A stretch of DNA of 64,000 bases. Origin: Squalus acanthias (lineage: Eukaryota). Below, piece by piece: positions 11,459-31,139 of this stretch. Every line of letters starts with the position of its first letter. Positions within the stretch are counted from its first letter, which is position 1. A model generated the notes under the pieces. The model ran no database searches. It saw nothing but the letters and a program-made list of their open reading frames with translations, and had not been told where the DNA came from. The stretch is from contig CM059427.1 of assembly GCA_030390025.1 (NCBI GenBank), positions 186,310,001 to 186,374,000 of the forward strand, written 5' to 3'. The position numbers and the translations under genes were made by a program.

Positions 11459-11792
11459 AAATAACAACAGAAAATGCTGGAAATACTCAGCAGGTCAGGC
11501 AGCATCCATGGAGAGAGAAACAGAGTTAACGTTTCAGGTCTGTGACCCTTCGTCAGAACTGGAAAAAGTTAGAGATGTAACAGGTTTTAAGCAAGTGTAG
11601 GGGCAGGGCAAGGGGGAGGGGAGGAAAGAACAAAAGGGAAGGTCTGTGATAAGATGGAAGGCAGGAATAAATGTTGCAAATGGGGATGGCAGAATCATCA
11701 ACAGCTGCCGCCTGAAAAAATAGGGGCAGAGGTTATGGTCTGAAATTGTTGAACTCAATGTTGAGTCCAGAAGGCTGTAAAGTGCCTAATAG
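11459..11792 (-). mobile_element. Penelope-like element 3' end (family 1) with hammerhead motif
   Basis: Flanked by 15-bp direct repeat aaagaccattttcct (11444-11458 / 11793-11807); minus strand encodes LGTLQPSGLNIEFNNFR as in the 43030 copy; CTGACGA..GAAACGTT motif near 11524-11560. Confidence 0.8.
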
Positions 11793-12022: not shown

Positions 12023-12845
12023 CTGGCAGCTGTCCTTCATTCTGCCAGTGCATTTCACACTTCTTTTAGCCTCAACCTGTCACATTAACACCTCCTCTTG
12101 CCTTGATCATCTCCACAGATCTCTGAAGGTTGCCACTCAAGTGGAAAGAGCAGTAAAGAAGGCCTATGGTGTGTTGGCGTTTATTAACAGAGGGTTTGAG
12201 TTTAAGAACCGTGAGGTTATGCTGCAACTGTACAGGACCTTGGTGAGACCACATTTGGAATATTGTGTGCAGTTCTGGTCACCTCACTATAGGAAGGACG
12301 TGGAAGCATTGGAAAGAGTGCAAAGGAGATTTACCAGGATGCTGCCTGGTTTGGGGGGGAGGTCTTATGAGGAAAGATTGAGGGAGTTGGGGCTTTTCTC
12401 TTTAGAGCGGAGGAGGATGAGAGGCGACTTAATAGAGGTTTATAAGATGATGAGGGGGATAGATAGAGTGGATGTTCAGAGACTATTTCCTCGGGTAGAG
12501 GCAGCTGTTACAAGGGGGCATAACTATAAGGTGCATGGGGGGAGATATAGAAGGGATGTCCGAGGTAGATTCTTTACTCAGAGAGTAGTTGGGGTGTGGA
12601 ATGGACTGCCTGCTAATGTCTCTTAATCTCTCCTTTTGTTCTTTCATCCCCTCCCCCTTTTCCCAGCTTTATCCTTGCTTTAAATCTATTTCATTTCCTG
12701 CTTTTTTCCAGTTCTGACGAAAGGTCTTCGACCTGAAATGTTAACTCTGTTTCTCTCTCCACGGATGCTGCCTGGCCTGCTGAGTTTTTCCAGCGTTTTC
12801 TGTTGTTATTTCGGATTTCCAGCATCCGCAGTATTTTGCTATCGT
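12023..12845 (+). mobile_element. Penelope-like element 3' end (family 1) with nested CR1 fragment
   Basis: Similar to 43316-43640; flanked by agtaaga(c/t)tattc at 12010-12022 and 12846-12858; hammerhead-like motif at about 12710-12746. Confidence 0.75.
12105..12612 (+). mobile_element. CR1 ORF2 C-terminal fragment nested in the Penelope remnant
   Basis: ORF 12048-12626 LYRTLVRPHLEYCVQFWSP...FFTQRVV..WN.LP. Confidence 0.9.
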
Positions 12846-15461: not shown

Positions 15462-16436
15462 AAAAGGTGAGCTCAAATGTGTTCTTAATCATCTCTTGCA
15501 TTTCTATAGTGCCTTTCACAACCTCAGGATGTCCCAAAGCGCTTCACAGATACTGAAGTAAATTTGAAGTGTAGTCACTGTTGTAATGTAGGAATTGCAG
15601 CAGCCAATTTGCGCACAGCAAGCTCCCACAAGCAGCAATGAGATGGATGACCAGATCTCTGAGACAATGATAAGCCAGTGCTTCCCAAGCTGTGAATTGC
15701 TCACCCACGCCCACCCAGTATTGTCAATTCAAAGGTCTCGGAGAGAAAGTGTATTAGGCGCAGTGACAGACACTCCAACTAGCCTGAAAATAGGAAAGTA
15801 CTTTTGCTTACATCGTTACAGAGATACACAGTGTTGCATAGCGTTACACAGTGTTACACAGAGTTACACAGAGTCTACAGCACAGAAACAGGCCATTCGT
15901 CCTAACTGGTCTGTGTCGGTGTTTATGCTCCACACGAGCCTCCTCCCACCCTACTTCATCTCACCCCATCAACATATCCTTCTATTCTATTCTCCCTCAT
16001 GTGCTTATCTAGCTTCCACTTAAATGCAACAATGCTTTTTGCCTCAACCATGTGGTCGCGAGTTCCACATTCTTATCACTCTCTGGGTCAAGAGGTTTCT
16101 CCTGAATTCCCTATTGGATTTATTAGTGACGATCTTATGTTGATGGATCCTAGTTCTTGTCTACCCCCACAATTGGAAACATCTTCTCTACGTCTACCCC
16201 ATCAATCCCCTTCAGAATTTTAAAGGCCTCTATCAGGTCTTCATAATTTTAAAGACCTCAGCCTTCTCTTCACTAGAGAACAGAGCCCCAGCCTGTTCAG
16301 CCTTTCCTGATCGTTGTAACCTCTCAGTTCTGGTATCATCCTTGTAAATGTACTTTCTCTTGCGGGACTGTGATTTCTATTTGAACTGATGCTTCATATT
16401 ACATTTATCTAAAAGGATCCATTCTCTGTGTGTTAG

Positions 16437-16730
16437 ATTTCACAGATAAACCCACGATATTCCCCGCTGAAATTATTGCAGGAAAGCGTGCGGACCTAAG
16501 CTGCACCTTCAACACCACATGCTCTGGAACAGCACCTGACTTAACCTGGGTCAATCCCGCTGACGTACCCGGGTCAGTCTCAAACAGTGTAGCTCAGCAT
16601 GGCATCACTCTGATATATACTTCTGTTCTGACCCTGATCCCATCACTCAAACACCACGGACAAACTCTCACCTGCAGAGTCAGATATCCATCCATTACAT
16701 CGGAGCGGACACTAGCACTAACTGTGCAAT
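16437..16730 (+). pseudogene. Gene A Ig domain-2 (C2-set) exon, open frame
   Basis: tgttag|ATTTC ... GCAAT|gtaagt; 294 nt, phase 1-1; CTFNTTC...W...HHGQTLTCRV. Confidence 0.92.
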
Positions 16731-16964
16731 GTAAGTATGAACATCCTTTATTCTAATTTGCCCATAATAGTCTACTTTGTGCACAGCAAGATCCCACAAA
16801 CAACAATGTGGTGATGACCAGATCATCTGTTTTTTACTGATACATATTGGCTAGTACAACGGGGAGTACTCTACTTTGAATACAGTCATAGGATCTATTA
16901 GGCCCACCTGAGAGTGTAGACGGGGCCTCGGTGTAGTGTCTCATGTGAAAGACGGCAGAAATGA

Positions 16965-17160
16965 GAGTGTGGCACTCCCACAGTACTGTCTCTCCGACAG
17001 TGCAACACTCTCTTAGTACTGAACCTCCAGTAGTGCAGCGCTCCCTCAGTACTGCCCCTCCGACAGTGCAGTACCCCCTCAGTACTTCCCCTCCGACAGC
17101 GCAGCGCTCCCTCAGTACTTCCCCTCCGACAGTGCAGCACTCCCTCAGTACTGCACTAAA
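16965..17160 (-). repeat. 30-bp DeuSINE-derived minisatellite (about 6 units) within a SINE at ~16770-17180
   Basis: ctccctcagtactgcccctccgacagtgcagc units. Confidence 0.85.
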
Positions 17161-17286
17161 GTGTCTGCCTGGTTTAGATGCTTTGTGATGAAGGAACTTG
17201 CATTGATTTCACACCTTTCATGTTCTCAGGCTCCCTCAAAGTGCTTCACAGTCAATGTAAGTTAACCGATCATTATTTGCTTTTAG

Positions 17287-17568
17287 ACGCACCACGGAAT
17301 CTCTCAATTACTTCTCTTGATACGATTAAAGATTAATTGATCAATATAAAAAAAGCGATTTCTACAGCAATACTCTGCTCTGTCGAGAGCTTCCCAGCTT
17401 CTAACCTGATATGGCGATATCTTGGTGTCACAATGAACAGAACAAGTTCCAACAACAAGCTGTGGTTAGAGTTTCCTCATGTTACATCCAGGGTCGCTGG
17501 AGACTATCAATGTATGGCAGAGAATGAACATGGAGCTGTGGAGAGGGTCATAACCATCACTGTGGAAT
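17287..17568 (+). pseudogene. Gene A Ig (C2/I-set) exon with premature stop
   Basis: ttttag|ACGCACCACGG ... GGAAT|gtgagt, 282 nt; GAT TAA at 17331-17336 where paralogues have GAT TCA/TCC. Confidence 0.92.
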
Positions 17569-17855
17569 GTGAGTGTACAGATACTTTCACATCGCTCACA
17601 AACACATACATGCACGCACACACACACGCAAACACGCATATGCACGCACACACACAAACATGCGCACATGCATGCACACACACATGCATATATACACACA
17701 TATTTTTTATTCATTCACAGCATGTGGGCACTGCTGGCAAGGCCAGCATTTATTGCCCATCCCTAATTGCCTTTGAGAAGGTGGTGGTGAGCTGCCTTCT
17801 TGAACCGCTGCAGTCCGTGTGGTGAAGGTACTCACACAGTGCTGTTAGGAAGGGA

Positions 17856-19312
17856 TGTAATGGAATAGCCATATTTCAGAAAAACACACCATCCTATGAA
17901 CAGAATTCAGATTTTATTAAAACATGACAAACTGGGGTTAAAAATCTAAAAAGCCTCAACGACACAAGCCGTAAACAGAAATACAGGCTTCTGAGATAAA
18001 GATCAGTTGTTAACAAAAGCTGTAAACACCACAAGCTTTGAAATGGGAATGGGATATTGACAAAGACAATGGCCATATTGAAATAGCAGTTTGGCGCTTC
18101 CAGAAGGTCTGGAGTTTGGGAGAAACACAATGGAATGACCCAAGTAAAGTGTTATAAGCTAACACTCAGGGAAACAGAAACACAGAATATTAAAAAACCA
18201 TGTGCCTTTGTAAAAGTACCATCAAATAATTCAGGAAACATGATTAAATATGCAACCAATTGAAGTAGCTAGAAAACAAGTAAACACCCAAGTTGAAGTG
18301 GTTTTGATTTACATATTGTAAAAAGTACCTACAGAACACTTTGAAAATATGACTTCAATAGATAACACCAAGCAATTACATTGTGTTTGTATTGAACTTG
18401 AAACACCACGGAGACAGGAGTCTGTGGTTGTAACCAGTGGTTTTAGAATTGAATGGAAAACGTTCAATAAGAATGACATCAAATAGATACATCGGTCATA
18501 TTGTTTTTTATGATAGGTTTTGAAACACCTAAAGGTAGAGACAGAATTCTGAAAGCTAAACAGCTGAAGTAACAGTAAGAATAGAAAGAATTCAACAAAG
18601 ATGACTAGAGACAATTAGCTTATATCAGCAGAAAACTTCAAAGGATAACCACTAAAAAAAGGTATGAAAATAGAGCTTTTCAGATGGAAAGGCAGAAGTC
18701 GCTGGAAACGGGCAAGCGATTCTCAACTTCAGGGGCACGCCCTGTAAGTTTTTCGCTTTTTGAGTCTCGGGGATCAAGGTACTCTTAATTGATTTTGGTG
18801 GATATTCTGGATTAAGAATAAGACTTAGAAATGTAAAAATGTAACCAAGTTAAGATTTGAGAATAAGGATCTCTGAGAATAAGAAATGGAAGCTATTTCT
18901 ATTTTGAATTGTGAAAGTTGCGATTGACTCATCAGCTGTTAACTAAAAGTCGGTTCCTAAATAAATCTGTATATTTTTAGAATTGTCTCACATAGTAATT
19001 TCTGTATCAACCTCGCAAACTCAATCTCTGTACACTCCTTTGTGAGGAGTCGCAGAATTCTGGGGGGTTTTCCGGACCCTCATAATATCCGGAAGGTTAC
19101 AGTCTAGTTAAACTTATTAAAAGTGCTATCCGGAGGACGGTAACATCTTCAGGCCATTCCTTTCCTTTAGGGAGAGATAGTCTGAACCTTTAGACCCAAT
19201 TAAGCGTCTCTAGGATTTGGTTACCGCTAACTTTAGTTGAAGGTGAACGTCTGGGGAATACGCCTGATCTGGGGTGGCCCGAAAAGGGCTAGGACTTGTA
19301 ATTATCCCTTCA
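17856..19312. mobile_element. Probable solo LTR (1457 bp) inserted into an older repeat
   Basis: Starts TGTAA, ends TTCA, 4-bp TSD GGGA (17852-17855 / 19313-19316); removing it restores a continuous host repeat ttaggaagggagttccagg; no coding capacity. Confidence 0.7.
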
Positions 19313-20270
19313 GGGAGTTCCAGGATTTTGACCTAGTGACGATGAAGAAGCGGTGATATATTTCCAGTCAGGTCTATATGTGATTTGGATGGGAACTTGG
19401 TGGTGGTCGTGTTCCGATGCGCCTGCTGCCCTGGTCTTTCTAGGTGGTAGAGGTCGCGGGCTTGGGGGGAGCTGTTGAAGTAACCTTGGTGAGCTGCTGC
19501 AGTGCATCTTATAGATGGTATACGCATGCATACACAGACACACACACGCAATTGCACACACATGAACAGAGAAAGACGCATTCGCGCACTCATATATGCA
19601 CACACAAAGGCACACTAAAACACACTCTCAGGATCACACACACACACACACACACACCTGTGAGTTGCCTAATCTCTCTGAGTACTGCACTGGAGTGTTG
19701 GCCTGGATTCTGGGCTTTGTATTGAAACACTGTAAACAAGAGATCAACAAGGCCCTGAATCAGACGAGCAGTGTCCTGCACAGAGAATTGTAGGTTTCTC
19801 ATTCAATACTCTATTGTTCCCTCACATTGCCCAAACAGAGGTCACGATCCACAAGGGCAAACAAAGCTGAACAACAGAAAGAAAGAACTTGCATTGATAT
19901 AGCACCTGCCACATCCTCAACATCTCTCTGATTCTTTCACAGTCAATGCAAGCTGACTGCCATGTTTGTCTAGATAAAAACAGTGACAACATTTCAAAGG
20001 CAATTCATTGGCTGTCAAGCCCTTGGGGACATCCTGAGGGTGTGAAAAGCACTTTCTTTCTTTCTAGAAGGACAGCGCCTCCACTGGTGGGAGGGTGCAA
20101 TTACAGCGTGACAGTTTACATAGGCAGTGTCCATTATAAATGTTGACATAGGAACTTATAAAGGGGAAAGATGCCTGGAAATGCATGCAGGCATAAGATA
20201 CAGAAAGATAAAGCATGGATTCTTGCTGTGCGCTGTGTTTGCTCACAATAAAATCTTTATTTGTCTTTCG

Positions 20271-20649
20271 GCACATCACAGAAACTCTATTACTTCTTTT
20301 GATACGATTAAAGATTCATTGATCAATATAAAAGAAGGGAATTCTACTGTGATACTCTGCTCTGTCGAGAGCTTCCCAGCTTCTAACCTGACGTGGCAAC
20401 ATTTTGGTGTCACAATGAACAGAACAAGTTCCAGGAACAAGCTGTGGTTGGAGTTTCCTCACGTTACATCCAGGGTCGCTGGAGACTGTGTCCTGCACAA
20501 CGAATTGTAGGTTTCTCCCGTCAATACTCTATCGTTCCCTCACATTGCCCAAACAGAGGGCACGTTCCACAAGGAGACTGGAAACTATCAGTGTGTGGCT
20601 GAGAAAGAACATGGAGCAGTGGCGAGCGCCATAACCCTCACTGTGGAAC
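20271..20649 (+). pseudogene. Gene A third Ig exon, disabled
   Basis: Acceptor tttag changed to tttcg, 2-nt deletion, 99-nt insertion 20488-20586 with in-frame TAG; otherwise ILCSVESFPASNLTW...YQCVAE. Confidence 0.9.
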
Positions 20650-21109
20650 GTGAGAGTACAGATACTTTCACATCTCTCTAAATACAAACAAATTAATGTC
20701 TACGGGAGACTGTGGAGTTTACAAAGTCTATGACAGACACTCACAAATGCATAAACACACACATACACTCTCCGCCTCTCCAACTCTATCTCCTCCTTTA
20801 AGATGCTCCTTGAAACCTGACCAAGCTTTTGGTCACCTATCCTAGTACCTCCTTATGTGGCTCTTTGTCAAATTTTGTCTGAACCTTTTATAGGAGAAGA
20901 GAGTGGCGAAGAGGTTTAGGGAGGGAATTCCAGAGCTTAGGGCCTAGGCAGCTGAAGGCATGGTTGTCAATGGTTGGACGAAGGGAAACGGGGATTCCCT
21001 CCCTCAACTTCTCTGCCTCTCCCTATCTCTAACTCCTTTAAGATGCTCTTTACAACCTACCTCTTTGACCAAGCTTTTGGTGCCCTGTCCTTATGGGATA
21101 AGGACAACA

Positions 21110-21625
21110 CCGTATAAATTTAGAGCTAGGTCGTTCAGGGGTGATGTCAGAAAGTACTTCTTCACACAAAGGGTAGTGGATATCTGGAACTCTCCCCGAA
21201 AAAGCTGTTTCAAACTAGGGTTTTTTTCCCTGGAATTTAGAAAGTTAAGGGGTGATTTGATCAAAGTTTTCAAGATATTAAGAGGAACTGATAGGGTAGA
21301 TAGAGAGAAACTATTTCCGCTGGTTGGGGAGTTTACGACTAAGGGACATAGCCGAAAAATTAGAGCCAGGCCTTTCAGGAGTGATGCTAGGAAACACTTC
21401 TAGACAAAAAGGGTGGTAGAAGTTTGGAACTTTTTTCTGAAAACGGCAGTTGATGCACAGCCAATTGTTAACTTTAAATCTGAGATATATAGATTTTTGT
21501 TAACCAAAGTATTCAGGGATATGGGGCAAAGGCAGGTAGATGGAGTTAGGCTACAGATCAGGCATGATCTCATTGAAAGGCAGAACAGGCTCGAGGGGCT
21601 GAATGACTAACTCCTGATCCTATTC
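21110..21625 (+). mobile_element. CR1 LINE 3' fragments nested in an L2 end
   Basis: LGFFSLEFRKLRGDLIKVFKIL..., CR1 3' UTR; L2 3' sequence on both sides. Confidence 0.75.
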
Positions 21626-22588
21626 TATGTGGCTCGCTGTAAAACGTTGTCTTATTTACGCTCCTGTGAAGCGCCTTGGGACGTTTTACTACATTACAGG
21701 CTCTATATAAATGCAAGTTATTGTTGTCTGATACAAGGCAGCTGATTGTTGCATCACTTAGAGCTCCCCAAACATTGCAGAATGGTCCCAGGGATGAGAG
21801 ACTTCAGTGATGCGGAGAGACTGGAGAATCCAGGTTTGTTCTCCTTAGAGCAGAGAAGGTTAAGGGGAAATTTAATAGAGGTGTTCAAAATCATGAGGGG
21901 TGTTAATAGAGTAGATAGGGAGAAACTGGAGGTTGACTAATATTACATCTTTAGATATTACACGTATAAATATTACATATGCAAATATTAAATGTACAAA
22001 TGTCATATATATAGATATTGCATAGAGAAGGAAGACTTGCATTTATATAACACTTATATAGTCCCAAAGCGCTTTACAGCCAATGAAGTACTTTTGAAGC
22101 GTAGTCACTGTTTGTAATGTAGGAAACATGGCTGCAAATTTGCGCACAGCAAGCTCCCACAAACAGCAATGTGATAATGGCCAGAAAATCAGTTATTTTA
22201 GCGATGTTGTTTGATATTTATATGCAAATGTGTAGATATTACATATATAAGATGGTTCACTAATGTCCCTTTAGGGAAGGAATCCTGCCGTCCTTACCTG
22301 GTCTGGGCCTATATGTGACTCCAGTCACACACCAACGTGGTTGACTCTTAACTGCCCTCTGAAGTGGACGCTTAGTTTATATCAAACCTGCTACCAACTG
22401 TTCAAGAAGAAGGTCTACCACCATCATCTCAAGGGGAAACTATGGATGGGCAATAAATGCTGGCCTTGCCAGCGACGCCCACATCCCGAGAATGAATTGT
22501 CAAAAATTGAGCGAGTGTGTCGCTTCTCGAGGTACATCGGAGCACCGTTCTCAAACTGTACTGCAGTAATTAATGGCTGTTTTTACAG

Positions 22589-22687
22589 GTGGAGACTCCA
22601 ATGAATGTAAAGTAGGATTGCTTGTTGCTGGGATCATATTGAGTGTTGAACTGGCTGGATTCTTTTAATCTTCAAGTATGTGCGAAA
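22589..22687 (+). pseudogene. Gene A transmembrane exon (frameshift/stop)
   Basis: ttttacag| phase 1: GDSNECKVGLLVAGIILSVELAGFF then TAA; restoring one base gives ..FFLIFKYVRK with phase-2 donor aa|gtaact. Confidence 0.72.
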
Positions 22688-23920
22688 GTAACTGCAAAGG
22701 TTTAACTTTTTTTTTTCTTCAAAATCTTTACTCCAATATTCTCTCCCTGATTTTTTCCCTCAGGTTCAAAACCAGATGCCACTCCGGTAAGCGATCCCTG
22801 CGTCCCCTTTGATCTGGAGTGCATCTTTCATGGCCCAGTTTCCAGGTGAATGCTGACGAGACCCAAGGGTCCCTCACTCTGCACGCTAGCTGCTGGACTG
22901 TATCAGGTCACTTGCGATTCGACAAAACCACAGTGACTACACCTCGGTAAACAATTCATGGGCTGGGAAGCACTTTGGGATATCCAGAGGATGTGAATAA
23001 ATAACTGCACATTCGTATGTTCTTTCTTTCTCGAGATTTACTAGAATGATACCAGAACTGAAAGGTTCTAGCTATCAGGAAAGATTAAACAGGCTGGGAC
23101 CCTTTTCTCCAGAAAAAAGAAGACTGAGGGGTGATCTTGAAAGAGATCTTTAAGATTATGAAGGGGTTTGATAGGGTAGGTGTAGAGAAGATGTTTCCAC
23201 TTACTTACCAAGAGAGTGGTGAGGATGTGGCACTCACTACCACAGGGAGTGTCTGAGGCGAGTAGTATAAATGCATTTAAAGGCGAGATAGATAAACACA
23301 TGAGGAAGAAAGGAAGAGAAGGATATGCTGATAGGGTGAGATTAAGAGGGGTGGCAGGAGGCTCGTATGGAGCATAAACACCGGCACGGACCAGTCGTGC
23401 CAGTTAAGGGGAGGTTTAACAGAGGCGATCAAAATCATGAGTGGTTTTGATCGATTAAATAAGCAGCAACTGTTTCCACTGGAGGAGGGTCGTTAACCAG
23501 AGGACACAGATTTACGGTCAGTGGCAAAAAAGCCAGAGGGGTAGATGAGGAGAAATATTTCTACGCAGCAAGTTTTTGTGATCTGGAATGCACTGCCTGA
23601 AAGGGCGGTGGAAACAGACTCAATAGAAACTTTAAAAATGGAATTGGACACATACTTGAAAAGGAAAAATTTGCAGGGCTCTGTGAAAAGAGCAGTGGGG
23701 AGTGGGACTAATTGGAGAGCTCTTACAAAGAGCCGGCACAGGCATGTTGGGGCAAACGGCTTCCCTCTGTGCCGTGTGATTCTATCATTATATGTGTGTG
23801 GACAGAAGCCATTTAAAGAGACAGTGCAGTAGTTGCTGTAACGTTACAGTGGGGTCTGTGTCTGTCCGGCACTGACACTCTGATATATGATAACCACAGT
23901 GCGATATTCTGCTATTTCAG

Positions 23921-24002
23921 GAGAAAGACAGCGACTGAGGAGAGAGTTTCAGAGCCCAGTGACCTTGCAATGACCTCCAGTGCACTCTCTGTGAAGCACC
24001 AG
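23921..24002 (+). pseudogene. Gene A first cytoplasmic exon
   Basis: tatttcag|G AGA AAG... (K)RKTATEERVSEPSDLAMTSSALSVKHQ|gtacag; phase 2 start matches the TM exon end. Confidence 0.7.
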
Positions 24003-24104
24003 GTACAGGAGCTGTTTGAACTTAGTCCAAAGCCTCAATCTCAGCGTGTAGACAACACGTGTCACAGATTCCCAGTTGGGCTTCCCACGATTTCTGCCTA
24101 TGAT

Positions 24105-26600
24105 GTCAGCTGTGGCTCAGCACTCTCTCTCACCTCAGGTCATGGGTTCCAGTCCCCATTCCAGAGATTTGAGCACCATAATCCAGGCCAACACTTCCCA
24201 GTTTGAGTACTGAGGGAGCACTGCACCATCAGAGGGTCAGTACTGAGGGAGCACTGCACCATCTGAGGGGCAGTACTGAGGGAGCGCTGCACTGTCAGAG
24301 GGTCAGTACTGAGGGAGCGCTGCACCATCTGAGGGGCAGTACTGAGGGAGTGCTGCACTGTCGGAGGGGCAGTACTGAGGGAGCGCTACATTGTCAAAGG
24401 GGCAGTACTGAGGGAGTGCTGCACTGTCTTAGAGGCACTACTGAGGGAGCGCTGCACTGTCAGAGCGGCAGTACTGAGGGAGCACTGCACTGTCTTAGAG
24501 GCAGTACTGACGGAGTGCTGCACTGTCAAAGGAGCAGTACTGAGGGAGTGCTGCACTGTCAAAGGGGCAGTACTGAGGGAGAGCTGCACTGTCAAAGGGG
24601 CAGTACTGAGGGAGCACTGCACTGTCAAAGGGGCAGTACTGAGGGAGGGCTGCACTGTCAAAGAGGCAGTACTGAGGGAGCACTGCACTGTCAAAGGGGC
24701 AGTACTGAGGGAGCACTGCACTGTCTTAGAGGCAGTACTGAGGGAGTGCTGCACTGTCAAAGGGGCAGTACTGAGGGAGTGCTGCACTGTCAAAGCGGCA
24801 GTACTGAGGGAGCACTGCACTGTCGGAGGGTCAGTACTGAGGCAGCACTGCACTGTCGGAGTGTCAGTACTGAGGCAGCACTGCACTGTCAGAGGGGCAG
24901 TACTGAGGGAGCACTGCACTATCGGAGGGGCAGTACTGAAGGAGCACTGCACTGTCAGAGGGTCAGTACTGAGGCAGCACTACACTGTCGGAGGGGCAGT
25001 ACTGCAGGAGCACTGCACTGTCGGAGGGTCAGTACTGAGGCAGCACTGCACTGTCGGAGGGGCAGTACTGAGGGAGCACTGTACTGTCGGAGGGTCAGTA
25101 CTGAGGGAGCACTGTACTGTCGGAGGGTCAGTACTGAGGGAGCACTGCACTGTCAAAGGGGCAGTACTGAGGGAGCACTGCACTGTCAGAGGGGCAGTAC
25201 TGAGGGAGCGCTGCACTGTCAAAGGGACAGTACTGAGGGAGCACTGCACTGTCAAAGGGGCAGTACTGAGGGAGCATTGCACTGTCTGAGGGGCAGTACT
25301 GAGGCAGCACTGCACTGTCAGAGGGGCAGTACTGAGGGAGCGCTACACTGTCAAAGGGGCAGTACTGAGGGAGCGCTGCACTGTCTTAGAGGCACTACTG
25401 AGGGAGTGCTGCACTGTCAAAGGGGCAGTACTGAGGGAGTGCTGCACTGTCAAAGGGGCAGTACTGAGGGAGCGCTGCACTGTCAAAGGGGCAGTACTGC
25501 GGGAGTGCTGTACTGTCAAAGGGGCAGTACTGAGGGAGCGCTGCACTGTCAAAGGGGCAGTACTGAGGGAGCACTGCACTGTCAAAGGGGCAGTACTGAG
25601 GGAGGGCTGCACTGTCAAAGGGGCAGTACTGAGGGAGCGCTCCACTGTCAAAGGGGCAGTACTGAGGGAGCACTGCACTGTCTTAGAGGCAGTACTGAGG
25701 GAGTGCTGCACTGTCAAAGGGGCAGTACTGAGGGAGTGCTGCACTGTCAAAGCGGCAGTACTGAGGGAGCATTGCACTGTCTGAGAGGCAGTACTTGGGG
25801 AGTGCTGCACTGTCAAAGGGGCAGTACTGAGGGAGTGCTGCACTGTCAAAGGAGCAGTACTGAGGGAGCACTGCACTGTCAAAGGGGCAGTACTGAGGGA
25901 GCACTGCACTGTCTTAGAGGCAGTACTTGGGGAGTGCTGCACTGTCAAAGGGGCAGTACTGAGGGAGTGCTGCACTGTCAAAGCGGCAGTACTGAGGGAG
26001 CACTGCACTGTCTTAGAGGCAGTACTGAGGGAGCGCTGCACTGTCAGAGCGGCAGTACTGAGGGAGCACTGCACTGTCTTAGAGGCAGTACTGAGGGAGT
26101 GCTGCACTGTCAAAGGGGCAGTACTGAGGGAGCACTGCACTGTCTTAGAGGCAGAACTGAGTGAGTGCTGCACTGTCAAAGCGGCAGTACTGAGGGAGTG
26201 CTGCACTGTCAAAGGGGCAGTATTGAGGGAGCACTGCACTGTCTTAGTGGCAGTACTGAGGGAGCGCTGCACTGTTAGAGCGGTAGTACTGAGGGAGCGC
26301 TGCAGTGTCAAAGGGGCAGTACTGAGGGAGCACTGCACTGTCTTAGCGGCAGTACTGGGGGAGTGCTGCACTTTTAGAGCGGTAGTACTGAGGGAGCGCT
26401 GCAGTGTCAGAGATGTCATCTTTCACATGAGACATTAAACCAGATGCCCCATCTGCCTCTCAGGTGGACATAAAAGATCCCAAAGCCACTATTTCGAAGA
26501 AGAGCTCTCCACAGAGTTCTGGTCCAATAGTTATCCCTCAACCAACATCACTAAGTACTTCATCAACTGTAAAGCACTTTGGGACGTCCCGAGGATGTGA
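24105..26600 (+). mobile_element. DeuSINE (SacSINE1/AmnSINE1-like) copy containing a large internal minisatellite
   Basis: Head gtcagctgtggctcag...catgggttcc, then array, then gtcatctttcacatgagacattaaacc...caggtggacataaaagatccc body and L2-like tail. Confidence 0.75.
24206..26410 (+). repeat. 30-bp minisatellite, about 73 units
   Basis: cagtactgagggagcactgcactgtcaaagggg-type units with variants; explains the repetitive ORFs at 24203-26419. Confidence 0.97.
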
Positions 26601-26785
26601 ATTATGGGGCTCAAGTCTCTGGAGTGGTGGCTCAAACCCATGACCTTCTGACTGAAAGGCGAGAGAGTGCTAAATCCACTGAGCCGTGGCCTACACTAGC
26701 GAGTCTATGCAATAATTCAACCCTATCAGCTCCGGTAAATGATGCGAGAATGTCTTTTGCTTCCCTTTTCTTTTAAGGTACGCAG

Positions 26786-27011
26786 AGCGCGGTGGTTGTT
26801 GACCCTGGAACACAACCAGTAATGCAATTAGCGAGGTGGAGACACCAACTCCCCAGGATCTCTCTGAAGGTCCGGTGGGAGGAGATGCTGGACATGGACA
26901 ACCCGCCAAGCACAAGGATCTTCTGTACGCCAACGTCAACTTCTTGAAGATGCCCAGTGGTGACGAGACTGTCCGCAGGGCACGGATTACGCAGAAATCA
27001 GCTTCCAGTGA
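26786..27011 (+). pseudogene. Gene A terminal cytoplasmic exon with ITIM and ITSM-like motifs
   Basis: LLYANV at 26920-26937; TDYAEISFQ* at 26982-27011 in a different frame; acceptor is either 26777 or 26785. Confidence 0.8.
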
Positions 27012-27319: not shown

Positions 27320-27540
27320 AGGTCATTTGGCCCATCGCACCTGAAAGAATTACCCCTTCAGTCCCATTCCTCCACCCTTCTGCCATTCGGCCCATCAACC
27401 CCGTGCTAGCTCTCTGAAAGAGCTACCCCCTTTGGCCCAATCCCCTGTCCCTTCCCCCATTCGGCCCATCTCCCCTTGTGCTAGCTTTCTGAAAGAACTC
27501 TCCACTCAGGCCCAATCCCCTGCCCTTTCCCCATACTTTT
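27320..27540 (-). repeat. About 60-bp tandem repeat (3 copies) derived from a CR1 3' UTR
   Basis: cattcggcccatc...ctagctctctgaaagagcta...cccaatccc repeated. Confidence 0.6.
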
Positions 27541-28138: not shown

Positions 28139-28482
28139 TATCTTTGATCTGCGAAGTCTTAATGGGACCAAGGTGGCTCCTTCAACAGGGCGTACAGTGT
28201 ACGGGCAATAAATGCATTGCATGCCAACAAATAAGCATGCCCTTTAAACCTCGTATGCCCCAGCCCTGCTATGTGGCCACATCATAACCAAGGCACTGCC
28301 TTGCTGCGTGCTGCCAACATGGCCGAATAGTAATGAACAGAAATGTGGTGCCACTCAACTTTGATATCAAATCTGATCGCTCTTTCTGATTGTTGCACCT
28401 TTCTTATGCTGTGAAAGATTGCAAGAAGCATATGGGTTATGTATAACATTACATTTACTTACACAAGGGATTAAAATGCTCA

Positions 28483-28718
28483 ATAACAACAGAAAACACT
28501 GGAAAAACTCAGCAGGCCAGGCAGCATCTGTGGAGAGAGAAACAGAGTTAACGTTTCAGGTCGAAGACCTTTCGTCAGAACAGAAGTTCTGACGAAAGGT
28601 CTTCGACCTGAAACGTTAACTCTGTTTCTCTCTCCACGGATGCTGCCTGGCCTGCTGAGTTTTTCCAGCGTTTTCTGTTGTTAGTTCGGATTTCCAGCAT
28701 CCGCAGTATTTTGCTATT
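28483..28718. mobile_element. Palindromic Penelope-derived insertion (family 1)
   Basis: 98-bp inverted arms 28484-28581 / 28586-28683; 15-bp TSD ggattaaaat(g/t)ctca at 28468-28482 / 28719-28733. Confidence 0.88.
28585..28621 (+). ncRNA. Minimal type I hammerhead ribozyme motif (mirror copy on - strand at ~28546-28581)
   Basis: AGTT-CTGACGA-A-AGGTC-TTC-GACCT-GAA-ACGT-T-AACT: stem I, conserved core, stem II, palindromic stem III. Confidence 0.72.
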
Positions 28719-28986
28719 GGATTAAAATTCTCAGACTGTTATCTACAGATATATCTATATTAAACATCTTACATCTGTGCACAATTTGTGTCTTCTAAAC
28801 GTTACTTCTTTTTGTCGCATTCCCCCTCCCTATTACCTAAATTCCTGTGACAACATTTATAATTGAAATTTCCTATGTAAACATATCACACTGTAATTAC
28901 ACCCTCCTACCATTGGTGGCGCTGCAATGTCACAGTTTTGCATCTCAGAGGAAATCTTTCCACTGTATTTATGATATTATTAACAC

Positions 28987-29140
28987 ACAGGGACCAGAAG
29001 GGGAGCTTCCTGCTGGGTTTACGATGTTAGGATACAGAGACCAGGGAGAATCTTCCTGCTGTGTTTACAATGTTGCTCAGACACAGGGACCATGGGGAAT
29101 CTTCTGGCTGTGTTTACAATGTTGTTAAGACAGAGGACTG
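28987..29140 (+). repeat. Short degenerate tandem repeat, about 45-48 bp x 3
   Basis: acagggacca..gggaatcttc..gctgtgtttacaatgttg repeated. Confidence 0.65.
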
Positions 29141-29411
29141 TGGAAATCTACCTTCCCCTTCAAATAGAGGCCAGGGCTAGGCCTGGCTCTGAGCCCCCCG
29201 CCCCCGCACACCCCACCCCCCTGTCCCCCTCGCCCGCCACCCTGTTCGTTTAGTCGGCCCTGCTCAAACTTACTGGTCTTACACATGAAGAGTGTGAGAA
29301 GTTGCACAACACCAGGTTATAGTCCAACAGTTTTATTTGAAATCACAAGCTTTCGGAGCGCTGCTCCTTCGTCAGGTGAAGTGAGGAGATGTCTCTTCAC
29401 ATCTCTTCACT

Positions 29412-29449
29412 TCACCTGACGAAGGAGCAGCAGCTCCGAAAGCTTGTGA
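29412..29449 (+). ncRNA. Minimal type I hammerhead ribozyme motif (mirror copy on - strand 29343-29379)
   Basis: TCAC-CTGACGA-A-GGAGC-AGCA-GCTCC-GAA-AGCT-T-GTGA. Confidence 0.72.
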
Positions 29450-29978
29450 TTTCAAATAAAACTGTTGGGGGTAAAAATTCACTTGGTTGCGCCTCCCGTT
29501 AGCGCCTTAAGAGGGCGCTAATGGGGCGCTAAGCCGCTAACGCCCGGGCGCAGCGATGTTTGCGCCGCTCGAGAACTTAACTTGAGATTGTGCGGCGGCG
29601 CTAAAACTTACCGCTGCGACCACCTGCGCGCGCAGATTATGACGTCATTCCATGGTGCAATGCCCTTGGGGCGCCCCGGAGCGGAAATTGAGTGGCGCCC
29701 CCTGCCTTACCGCCTGGCGCTTCCAACGACCGGAAGACTGGAACGCTATCAATCGGTGTGGGGCTGGGGGGGGCGCTATTTAAAGGGGGCCTCTTCCTGT
29801 CTTTTTCTGTGGTCGACATTTATGCACCACTCGTTCTGAGAGAGAGAGAGAGATTCGGAGAGAGAGAGAGAGAGACTTCTACATTGACTCAACGCTTTGT
29901 GAGGTAGTTTTGCCTATTCATCCTAACTTTGTTGCTACTTTAGTTGCTGTCCCTCATTACTTTTCTGGCAAAGAGAAT

Positions 29979-31139
29979 ATGGGGGCTGCACTGATTGGGG
30001 GCGTCGTCCTGCTCCAGCTGAATCGGAGGATACAGAGACGCAGACAGAGAGTGGCAATGATGGCCAGACGGAGGAGGGCCATCAGGCGCATGTACAGGAG
30101 AGCTTACCCTCCCAGGGTATATCGTGAACAGCTCTCCTACATCCATGTGTCCGAGGAGCTATGTTTGCGAAGGCTGCGATTCAGCAAGGAGGTGGTCACT
30201 GAGCTCTGCCACCTGCTGCAGCCAGATCTGCAGCCTCAGCTGAGGTCCAGGACGTCTCTGTCGGTGGCAGTGAAGGTCACAGTGGCTTTGAACTTCTACG
30301 CCACTAGCTCATTCCAAGCTGCTGTTGGGGACCTCGCCAATATCTCCCAGTTCGCGGTGCATCGCTGCATCCGGCAGGTCACCAATGCCCTCTTCAGAAG
30401 GAGACGAGAGTTCATCTCTTTCCCTATGACCCCAGACAAGCAGCGTGACCGTGCTCTGGGCTTTGCGAGGGTAGCGGGCTTCCCCATGGTGCAGGGCGCC
30501 ATTGACTGCACGCATGTGGCTTTGCGTGCTCCGCGAGAGAATGCAGAGGAATTCAGGAACAGAAAGGGGTTCCATTCCTTGAATGTCCAGTTGGTCTGTG
30601 ACCACAGACAGGTGATACTCGCTGTCAATGCCCACTATCCTGGCAGCTGCCACGATGCTTTCATCCTGCGCCAGACTACTGTGGCAGAAGTTTTCGAGGC
30701 ACCGCATCAGCCAGTTGGTTGGCTTCTCGGGGACAAGGGGTACGCATTGAGCACCTGGCTGATGACACCGCTCCGTACGCCAAACACCCCTGCTGAGCTG
30801 CGGTACAATGAAAGCCATCAAGCAACCAGGAACATTATTGAGCGCACAATCGGCGTGCTGAAACAACGGTTCCGCTGTCTGGACCATTCCGGAGGAGCCC
30901 TGCAGTACTCGCCTGAGCAAGTTTCGAACTTCGTAGTCGTGTGCTGCATGTTGCACAACATGGCAATCCTCAGGACCCAGCCAATGCCACCAGGCCTTGT
31001 AGCACCACCAGAGGAGGAGGAGGAAGAGGAGGAAGAGGACGAGGACGATGATCATCAGCAGCACCAAGGCGGGAGGGCGGCCCACAATGGTCAAACTGCA
31101 AGGGCCGTCCGTCAACGGCTAATAGCAAGCCGCTTCTAG
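29979..31139 (+). CDS. Harbinger transposase (HARBI1-like DDE nuclease), 386 aa
   Basis: Uninterrupted ORF with GAIDCTH, NRKGFHSLNVQLVCD, PGSCHD, LLGDKGY, IERTIGVLKQRFRCL, CCMLHN; first ATG at 29979; AATAAA at 31301. Confidence 0.95.
   Translation: MGAALIGGVVLLQLNRRIQRRRQRVAMMARRRRAIRRMYRRAYPPRVYREQLSYIHVSEELCLRRLRFSKEVVTELCHLLQPDLQPQLRSRTSLSVAVKVTVALNFYATSSFQAAVGDLANISQFAVHRCIRQVTNALFRRRREFISFPMTPDKQRDRALGFARVAGFPMVQGAIDCTHVALRAPRENAEEFRNRKGFHSLNVQLVCDHRQVILAVNAHYPGSCHDAFILRQTTVAEVFEAPHQPVGWLLGDKGYALSTWLMTPLRTPNTPAELRYNESHQATRNIIERTIGVLKQRFRCLDHSGGALQYSPEQVSNFVVVCCMLHNMAILRTQPMPPGLVAPPEEEEEEEEEDEDDDHQQHQGGRAAHNGQTARAVRQRLIASRF

Follow-up and report, generated by a model that had tools for sequence, protein, structure and literature searches.

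A short insertion with inverted arms and a hammerhead motif on either strand lies within the 64,000-nt stretch of Squalus acanthias DNA that we analyzed (hereafter, the window), and it raises the question of how such a structure arises. A first-pass annotation had offered two origins: a Penelope insertion truncated to an extreme degree and bearing an inverted copy, or a self-propagating family of ribozyme-bearing hairpins. The first was supported by the parent open reading frame (ORF), the tail and the target-site duplication (TSD) described below. The second disagreed with the junctions, which vary between copies, the same junction recurring across sequence variants. We think it probable that a Neptune-type Penelope-like element (PLE) left the insert as a dead-end stub, made by dual-nick priming, run-off at the 5′ start of an uncut mRNA and head-to-head joining.

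The proposed hairpin insert was borne out: 236 bp lie between direct repeats that are identical at 14 of 15 positions (Table 1). The two arms (28484–28581 and 28586–28683) are 98 bp each, identical at 96 of 98 positions, and separated by a 4-nt loop. Both mismatches sit in CpG sites, as expected of decay after insertion. Folding of the whole insert gave −195.9 kcal/mol (z = −26.7), a value equalled by 0 of 200 shuffles. The right arm continues into a tail of ~34 nt that has no partner on the left arm and had been missed at first pass; this one-sided tail is a PLE tail, a hallmark of these elements. In the predicted fold, an 8-bp inverted repeat (28638–28645 with 28696–28703) pairs arm with tail, a pairing that may set where the two RT start sites lie. 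Unit positions are numbered from +1 = window 28586, with the hammerhead core starting at +4 and the predicted cut after +32. Descriptor features for the minimal type I hammerhead were taken from PMC4209133.

Table 1. Coordinates of the insert's features and of two related copies in the window.
Feature	Position	Strand	Remarks
Left TSD	28468..28482	+	Last base also fits element end, giving 13–15 bp
Inverted arm	28483..28581	−	Unit +1 to about +101, tail-less; likely cDNA primed at the inner start site
Minimal hammerhead, minus strand	28546..28581	−	Just 3 bp in stem I; cut predicted at 28550/28549
Junction	28582..28585	.	3 untemplated bases, then A of unit position −1 (Inr-like, predicted transcript start)
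Minimal type I hammerhead	28585..28621	+	4-bp stem I, extra A in core, 5-bp stem II, stem III palindromic; cut predicted after 28617
Direct arm	28586..28683	+	Unit +1 to +98; ATG at 28640 (+55) in frame with parent ORF of full-length elements
One-sided PLE tail, about 34 nt	28684..28718	+	Lies between the family's two 3′ ends, near +100 and +135
Right TSD	28719..28733	+	Paired with 28468..28482
Longer non-hairpin copy, same subfamily	12620..12845	+	3′ UTR, hammerhead, arm, tail
Tail-less copy, sister subfamily	11463..11790	−	Own 15-bp duplication

The claim of a hammerhead motif on both strands held up, as each strand carries the core, a 5-bp stem II and a palindromic ACGT, with stem I as listed in Table 1. 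The features present were the core CUGANGA/GAA, the extra base 9.1, stems I and II, and a palindromic stem III. A scan of 800 kb of unselected genome found 19 such motifs, versus 0 in the same DNA reversed. Stems I and II and the palindrome differ between two families (the second is described below) yet remain paired, which is covariation; loop II is variable. The conserved G10.1–C11.1 pair was absent from the studied copy, which has A–U, and from its sister variants, which have G–U, and family 2 has G–C. A search of Rfam, suggested at first pass, returned no hammerhead among 28 matches at E ≤ 10, and its microRNA matches were dismissed because they reflect merely a long hairpin. Minimum-energy folds of monomer and dimer mispaired the hammerhead core (the monomer fold was weak, z = −0.9); the published activity of this minimal class is low or protein-assisted. 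The hairpin had also been expected to sequester the ribozyme, and the fold of the full insert predicts this outcome. That is, because the antisense arm is transcribed first from either strand, the hammerhead would be locked in the hairpin, and the ribozyme of the studied copy is predicted to be a passenger.

By its sequence, the insert derives from an abundant Neptune-type PLE (RT plus GIY-YIG), whose ORF begins with the arm and tail. In longer copies, the DNA upstream of the arm runs into a 3′ UTR and an ORF with RT, GIY-YIG and a Cys-rich linker. In these broken genomic copies, read stop to stop, the RVT_1 match (27.4 bits, E = 3e-6) fell just below its cut-off of 29.6, and the GIY-YIG match (22.7 bits) was at its cut-off of 22.6; Pfam left two RT fragments of copy L124 unrecognized and gave one spurious match. 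The RT–EN linker carries C-x4-C-x2-C, which conforms to the extra Cys motif (CX2-5CxxC between RT and EN) that defines Neptune in PMC8557442. A putative assignment to the Neptune clade fits this motif and the RT and GIY-YIG domains. In tandem full-length elements, arm and tail continue in frame into the ORF, and 12 of 24 loci picked by the 5′ part of the ORF had some arm or tail directly upstream of it, in frame from the ATG at +55. The elements showed the EN+ PLE organization, a pLTR or partial tandem with the ORF start inside the pLTR, along with the optional 30–40-bp tail on one end, inverted 5′ copy and TSD. The hairpin is thus the first 100–135 nt of the element's pLTR–ORF junction, present twice.

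We scored 40 of the 2124 first-look candidates from a genome search; the best 30 of these 40 had common outer ends, differing flanks and short direct repeats. A TSD finder, itself without a null, reported an 11–18-nt repeat at all 30 of 30 loci. Family 3′ ends fell near +100 or +135. The hammerhead 27-mer had 6,322 exact genome matches, and the anchor at +53..+84 had 21,049. A second, distant Neptune-type family was found via an adjoining hairpin at about 29295–29468, and a 29-mer from it had 39,039 exact genome matches. That hairpin is a fold-back stub of the second family; each of its strands carries a hammerhead, and other DNA truncates its right arm.

Several further features were seen nearby. 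On the + strand, Ig C2-set and I-set exons occupy 16385–26960, about 1.5 kb upstream of the insert, with a motif near 26921–26938 that we take to be ITIM-like; the gene is putatively Siglec-like. A reverse-strand ORF at 29784–31136, near the break in the second hairpin, is a 451-aa stop-to-stop frame matching DDE_Tnp_4 (E = 3e-39), presumably a Harbinger-type transposase. Short degenerate tandem repeats lie at 28946–29141 (about 49 nt) and 27353–27532 (about 75 nt). At a separate locus (L207:4494–6159), an intronless 555-aa frame that in our view resembles HSP70 adjoins PLE copies.

We compared the inversion junctions of 45 hairpins, as the first-pass annotation had suggested, and 43 of them could be parsed, 15 of which had not been chosen for likeness to the query. 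The comparison went against a self-propagating family: 26 different junctions were found in the 43 hairpins, with no shared fixed junction, and 12 among the 15 not selected by query likeness. The commonest junction (7 nt) occurred in 9/43 hairpins, spread across four sequence variants, and the junction of the studied copy recurred once, in a different variant. These results bear on whether the hairpin is a non-autonomous mini-element propagated by its own transcription and re-insertion. The frequency of the 7-nt junction speaks for such an element, as do the junction-plus-variant pairs shared by L156/L159, L023/L030 and L163/L164, and these few pairs may reflect some re-mobilization or duplication. 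Against it stand the number of junctions, the spread of the common and studied junctions over variants, and the occurrence of the same end point in single-arm inserts, and we regard this origin as quite improbable. Both arms agreed at all seven diagnostic sites in 25/43 hairpins, as expected if both arms usually come from one template. One hairpin (L028) had arms with different loop II variants, which suggests two different template RNAs in one insertion. Tight hairpins held about 3 of the first 100 listed exact hammerhead matches (compared by eye).

The stub reading draws attention to where the arms end. We scored 78 unselected arms at 70 loci. These came from those fetched among the first 100 matches listed for a downstream anchor, after arms with <400 nt of upstream DNA had been dropped; all lay within the initial 15 Mb of a single contig, and in some cases both arms of one insertion were counted. 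The 5′ ends of 24 arms fell in −3..+20, compared with 0 in −15..−4, 3 in −100..−4 and 6 in +21..+52. Most arms lie outside hairpins, the remaining 45 of 78 reaching >100 nt upstream. The pile-up at the 5′ edge of the hammerhead was significant (p = 1e-15 vs a uniform null), and 14 of the 24 arms ending in −3..+20 were single-arm inserts (by eye). In a previous sample of 30 loci, representing 27 insertions, 5 ends lay no more than 15 nt upstream of +1. The second family showed the same pile-up at its own hammerhead edge (9/30 and 6/18 arms).

Across the genome, tight inverted junctions were most frequent at anchors in the 5′ half of the ribozyme (568 at +4 and 740 at +21) and dropped off to either side: 64 at +41 (which covers the cut site), 36 at +53, 23 at −22 and 12 near −80. 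Scaled by anchor frequency, the excess was about 15–60-fold, and only about 4–9-fold against the −22 anchor, a weakly conserved control with 8 exact matches in the sample. Copies ending at −1 numbered about 3,400 (corrected with 60 loci) and those ending at +1 about 3,400 or more; 37,448 copies ran past −7. Junction position is far from random, a feature unforeseen at first pass. Among 12 near-full-length elements that reached the upstream repeat, 6 extended past −3, 1 started at +2 and 3 started at +27..+34. With half passing −3 and only one starting at +2, other templates or template jumps exist.

Few ends were found at the cleavage site, and junction counts and arm ends led us to reject a cleavage-site pile-up as the main route. 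Some observations do favor the copying of stubs from hammerhead-cleaved RNA: a few of the 64 junctions are symmetrical at the cut site, and 3/12 upstream repeats start at +27..+34. The studied copy and most short copies retain the whole core upstream of the cut, however, and cut-site junctions are about 10-fold rarer than junctions in the 5′ half, which makes this source very improbable.

The 5′ boundary is the A at −1, in an Inr-like pyrimidine-A-pyrimidine context. A TATA-like hexamer started −34..−28 of this A in 57/71 long family-1 copies and 18/26 family-2 copies, and in 0 control windows; the hexamer set was chosen after data inspection, and the copies are related and amount to two families, not 97 independent cases. 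Family 2 has the canonical TATATA and family-1 members are weak matches; several of the family-2 misses are stubs without upstream DNA. TATA and Inr-like motifs have been noted in rotifer pLTRs (PMC3846280). A search for a cap-derived G was non-discriminating, G being in excess before both end positions (G:A 1790:1298 before −1; G:T 2050:1390 before +1). We concluded that the edge of the pile-up likely marks the transcript start of the element RNA, at or near the A at −1. In D. virilis, by contrast, transcription begins some 120 nt upstream of the hammerhead, on the far side of an intron (PMC2377424, PMC4209133). With its pyrimidine tract and CAG, the edge looks like a splice acceptor, and a spliced template as in D. 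virilis was considered and rejected: the short copies are preceded by no shared first exon, and family 2 has no AG at the edge. No clean GT-AG joint was seen in 4 runs (contigs, RNA status mostly guessed). All 24 runs consulted consist of contigs; the repeat is present in runs, and none of 4 compared with the locus reached the insert's unique flanks.

The same edge could form on longer templates of the same PLE if RT stalled at, or dissociated from, a folded or protein-bound hammerhead. Ends do spread over the core and stem II, with 740 junctions inside, half of the examined upstream repeats pass −3, and the anole hammerhead is protein-assisted (PMC11167929). Stalled ends would be expected around the structure's 3′ foot (+23 to +36); +21..+32 contained just 1/78 ends, however, and it is the 5′ side that shows the sharp edge. 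Together with the weak monomer fold (z = −0.9) and the promoter-like spacing in two families, this makes stalling unlikely, although it is the alternative to run-off that we take most seriously. Fold-back self-priming (proposed in PMC3846280), or annealing at the hammerhead's short inverted repeats, could also make a palindrome. Short self-complementary words from stem II or the 5′ edge are used at many junctions, and they probably shape the exact joint. As the origin of the palindrome itself we find fold-back hard to credit, since it leaves unexplained the 14 single-arm inserts with the same end and the termination of one arm at +100 and the other at +135.

For the stub formed by run-off, we propose the following steps. 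The element's enzyme would nick both target strands, and from each nick RT would prime on the uncut mRNA, using two internal positions close to its 5′ end. The first 100–135 nt would be copied, giving cDNAs of about 100 and 135 nt, and both cDNAs would run off the predicted RNA 5′ start just before the hammerhead. The two would then be end-joined head to head, yielding the observed insert. According to PMC11167929, the protein of an anole PLE both cuts the two strands and extends them, uses two internal start sites flanking the tail, depends on the ORF's first 172 nt and takes mainly uncut RNA as its template. Our scheme borrows both-strand cutting and extension, the flanking start sites and the uncut main template from that in vitro system by analogy. 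The identity of the parent, arm plus tail as ORF start, the two 3′ end positions, the one-off junctions and the pile-up were established in our own analysis, and we infer the transcript start at the A at −1 and the end joining of the two cDNAs.

As a tentative extension, which we consider possible but doubtful, PLEs might make a retrovirus-like strong-stop cDNA. Synthesis would start in the 5′ repeat and run off at the capped end (the first base pair of the hammerhead); copying the gene would then require a jump to the 3′ repeat. Hairpins and stubs would be failed jumps. If true, this scheme would give a single account of pLTRs, partial tandems and inverted ends. The studied insert is an ordinary PLE stub, one among hundreds of similar dead stubs, and its value lies in the population: the end statistics bear on how PLEs form inverted ends and on what the PLE hammerhead does. 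Two points are testable, that the main template in vivo is uncut RNA and that the transcript start is probably at the ribozyme's first base pair. If the latter is true, the jump from 5′ to 3′ repeat is directly testable in the anole in vitro system.

The architecture, the tail and pairs of hammerheads on opposite strands are already in print; the openly readable main texts that we consulted contained no 5′-end pile-up at PLE hammerheads, and no twin priming or strong stop in PLEs. Animal non-LTR retrozymes (bioRxiv 10.64898/2026.07.22.740005) share with the studied insert a non-coding, PLE pLTR-derived nature and a type I hammerhead. They are head-to-tail tandems, whereas the insert is a single head-to-head unit, and we rejected its classification as a non-LTR retrozyme because head-to-tail tandem units are required. 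At another locus (L255:1168–1447), position 1447 is joined back to 1168 in contigs from three probable RNA runs, giving a hammerhead-containing 280-nt unit, which could represent a retrozyme-like tandem or circle.

The metazoan PLE minimal hammerheads described in PMC4209133 likewise have a short helix I, an extra base between 9 and 10.1, and a palindromic 15.2–16.2. Dual hammerheads on opposite strands are reported there at spacings of 100–700 bp, whereas the two motifs of the studied insert are 10 nt apart. Helix II of its predicted hammerhead has 5 bp and opens with A–U, in contrast to the usual G10.1–C11.1. Poseidon of Anolis carolinensis (PAc; PMC11167929) resembles our elements in having a hammerhead at the ORF start and two RT start sites about 100–150 nt downstream that define the tail. 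PAc belongs to a different clade, and the text consulted mentions neither a 5′-end pile-up nor hairpin stubs. The EN+ PLE insertions in PMC3846280 and PMC8557442 likewise have a head-to-head inverted copy, there of a 5′-truncated pLTR, a 30–40-bp tail on one arm, a TSD and a pLTR with the first ORF codons. Unlike them, the studied insert has no ORF body between its repeats, its TSD is longer (about 14–15 bp, compared with 8–10 in rotifer PLEs), and the ends concentrate at the 5′ edge of the hammerhead.
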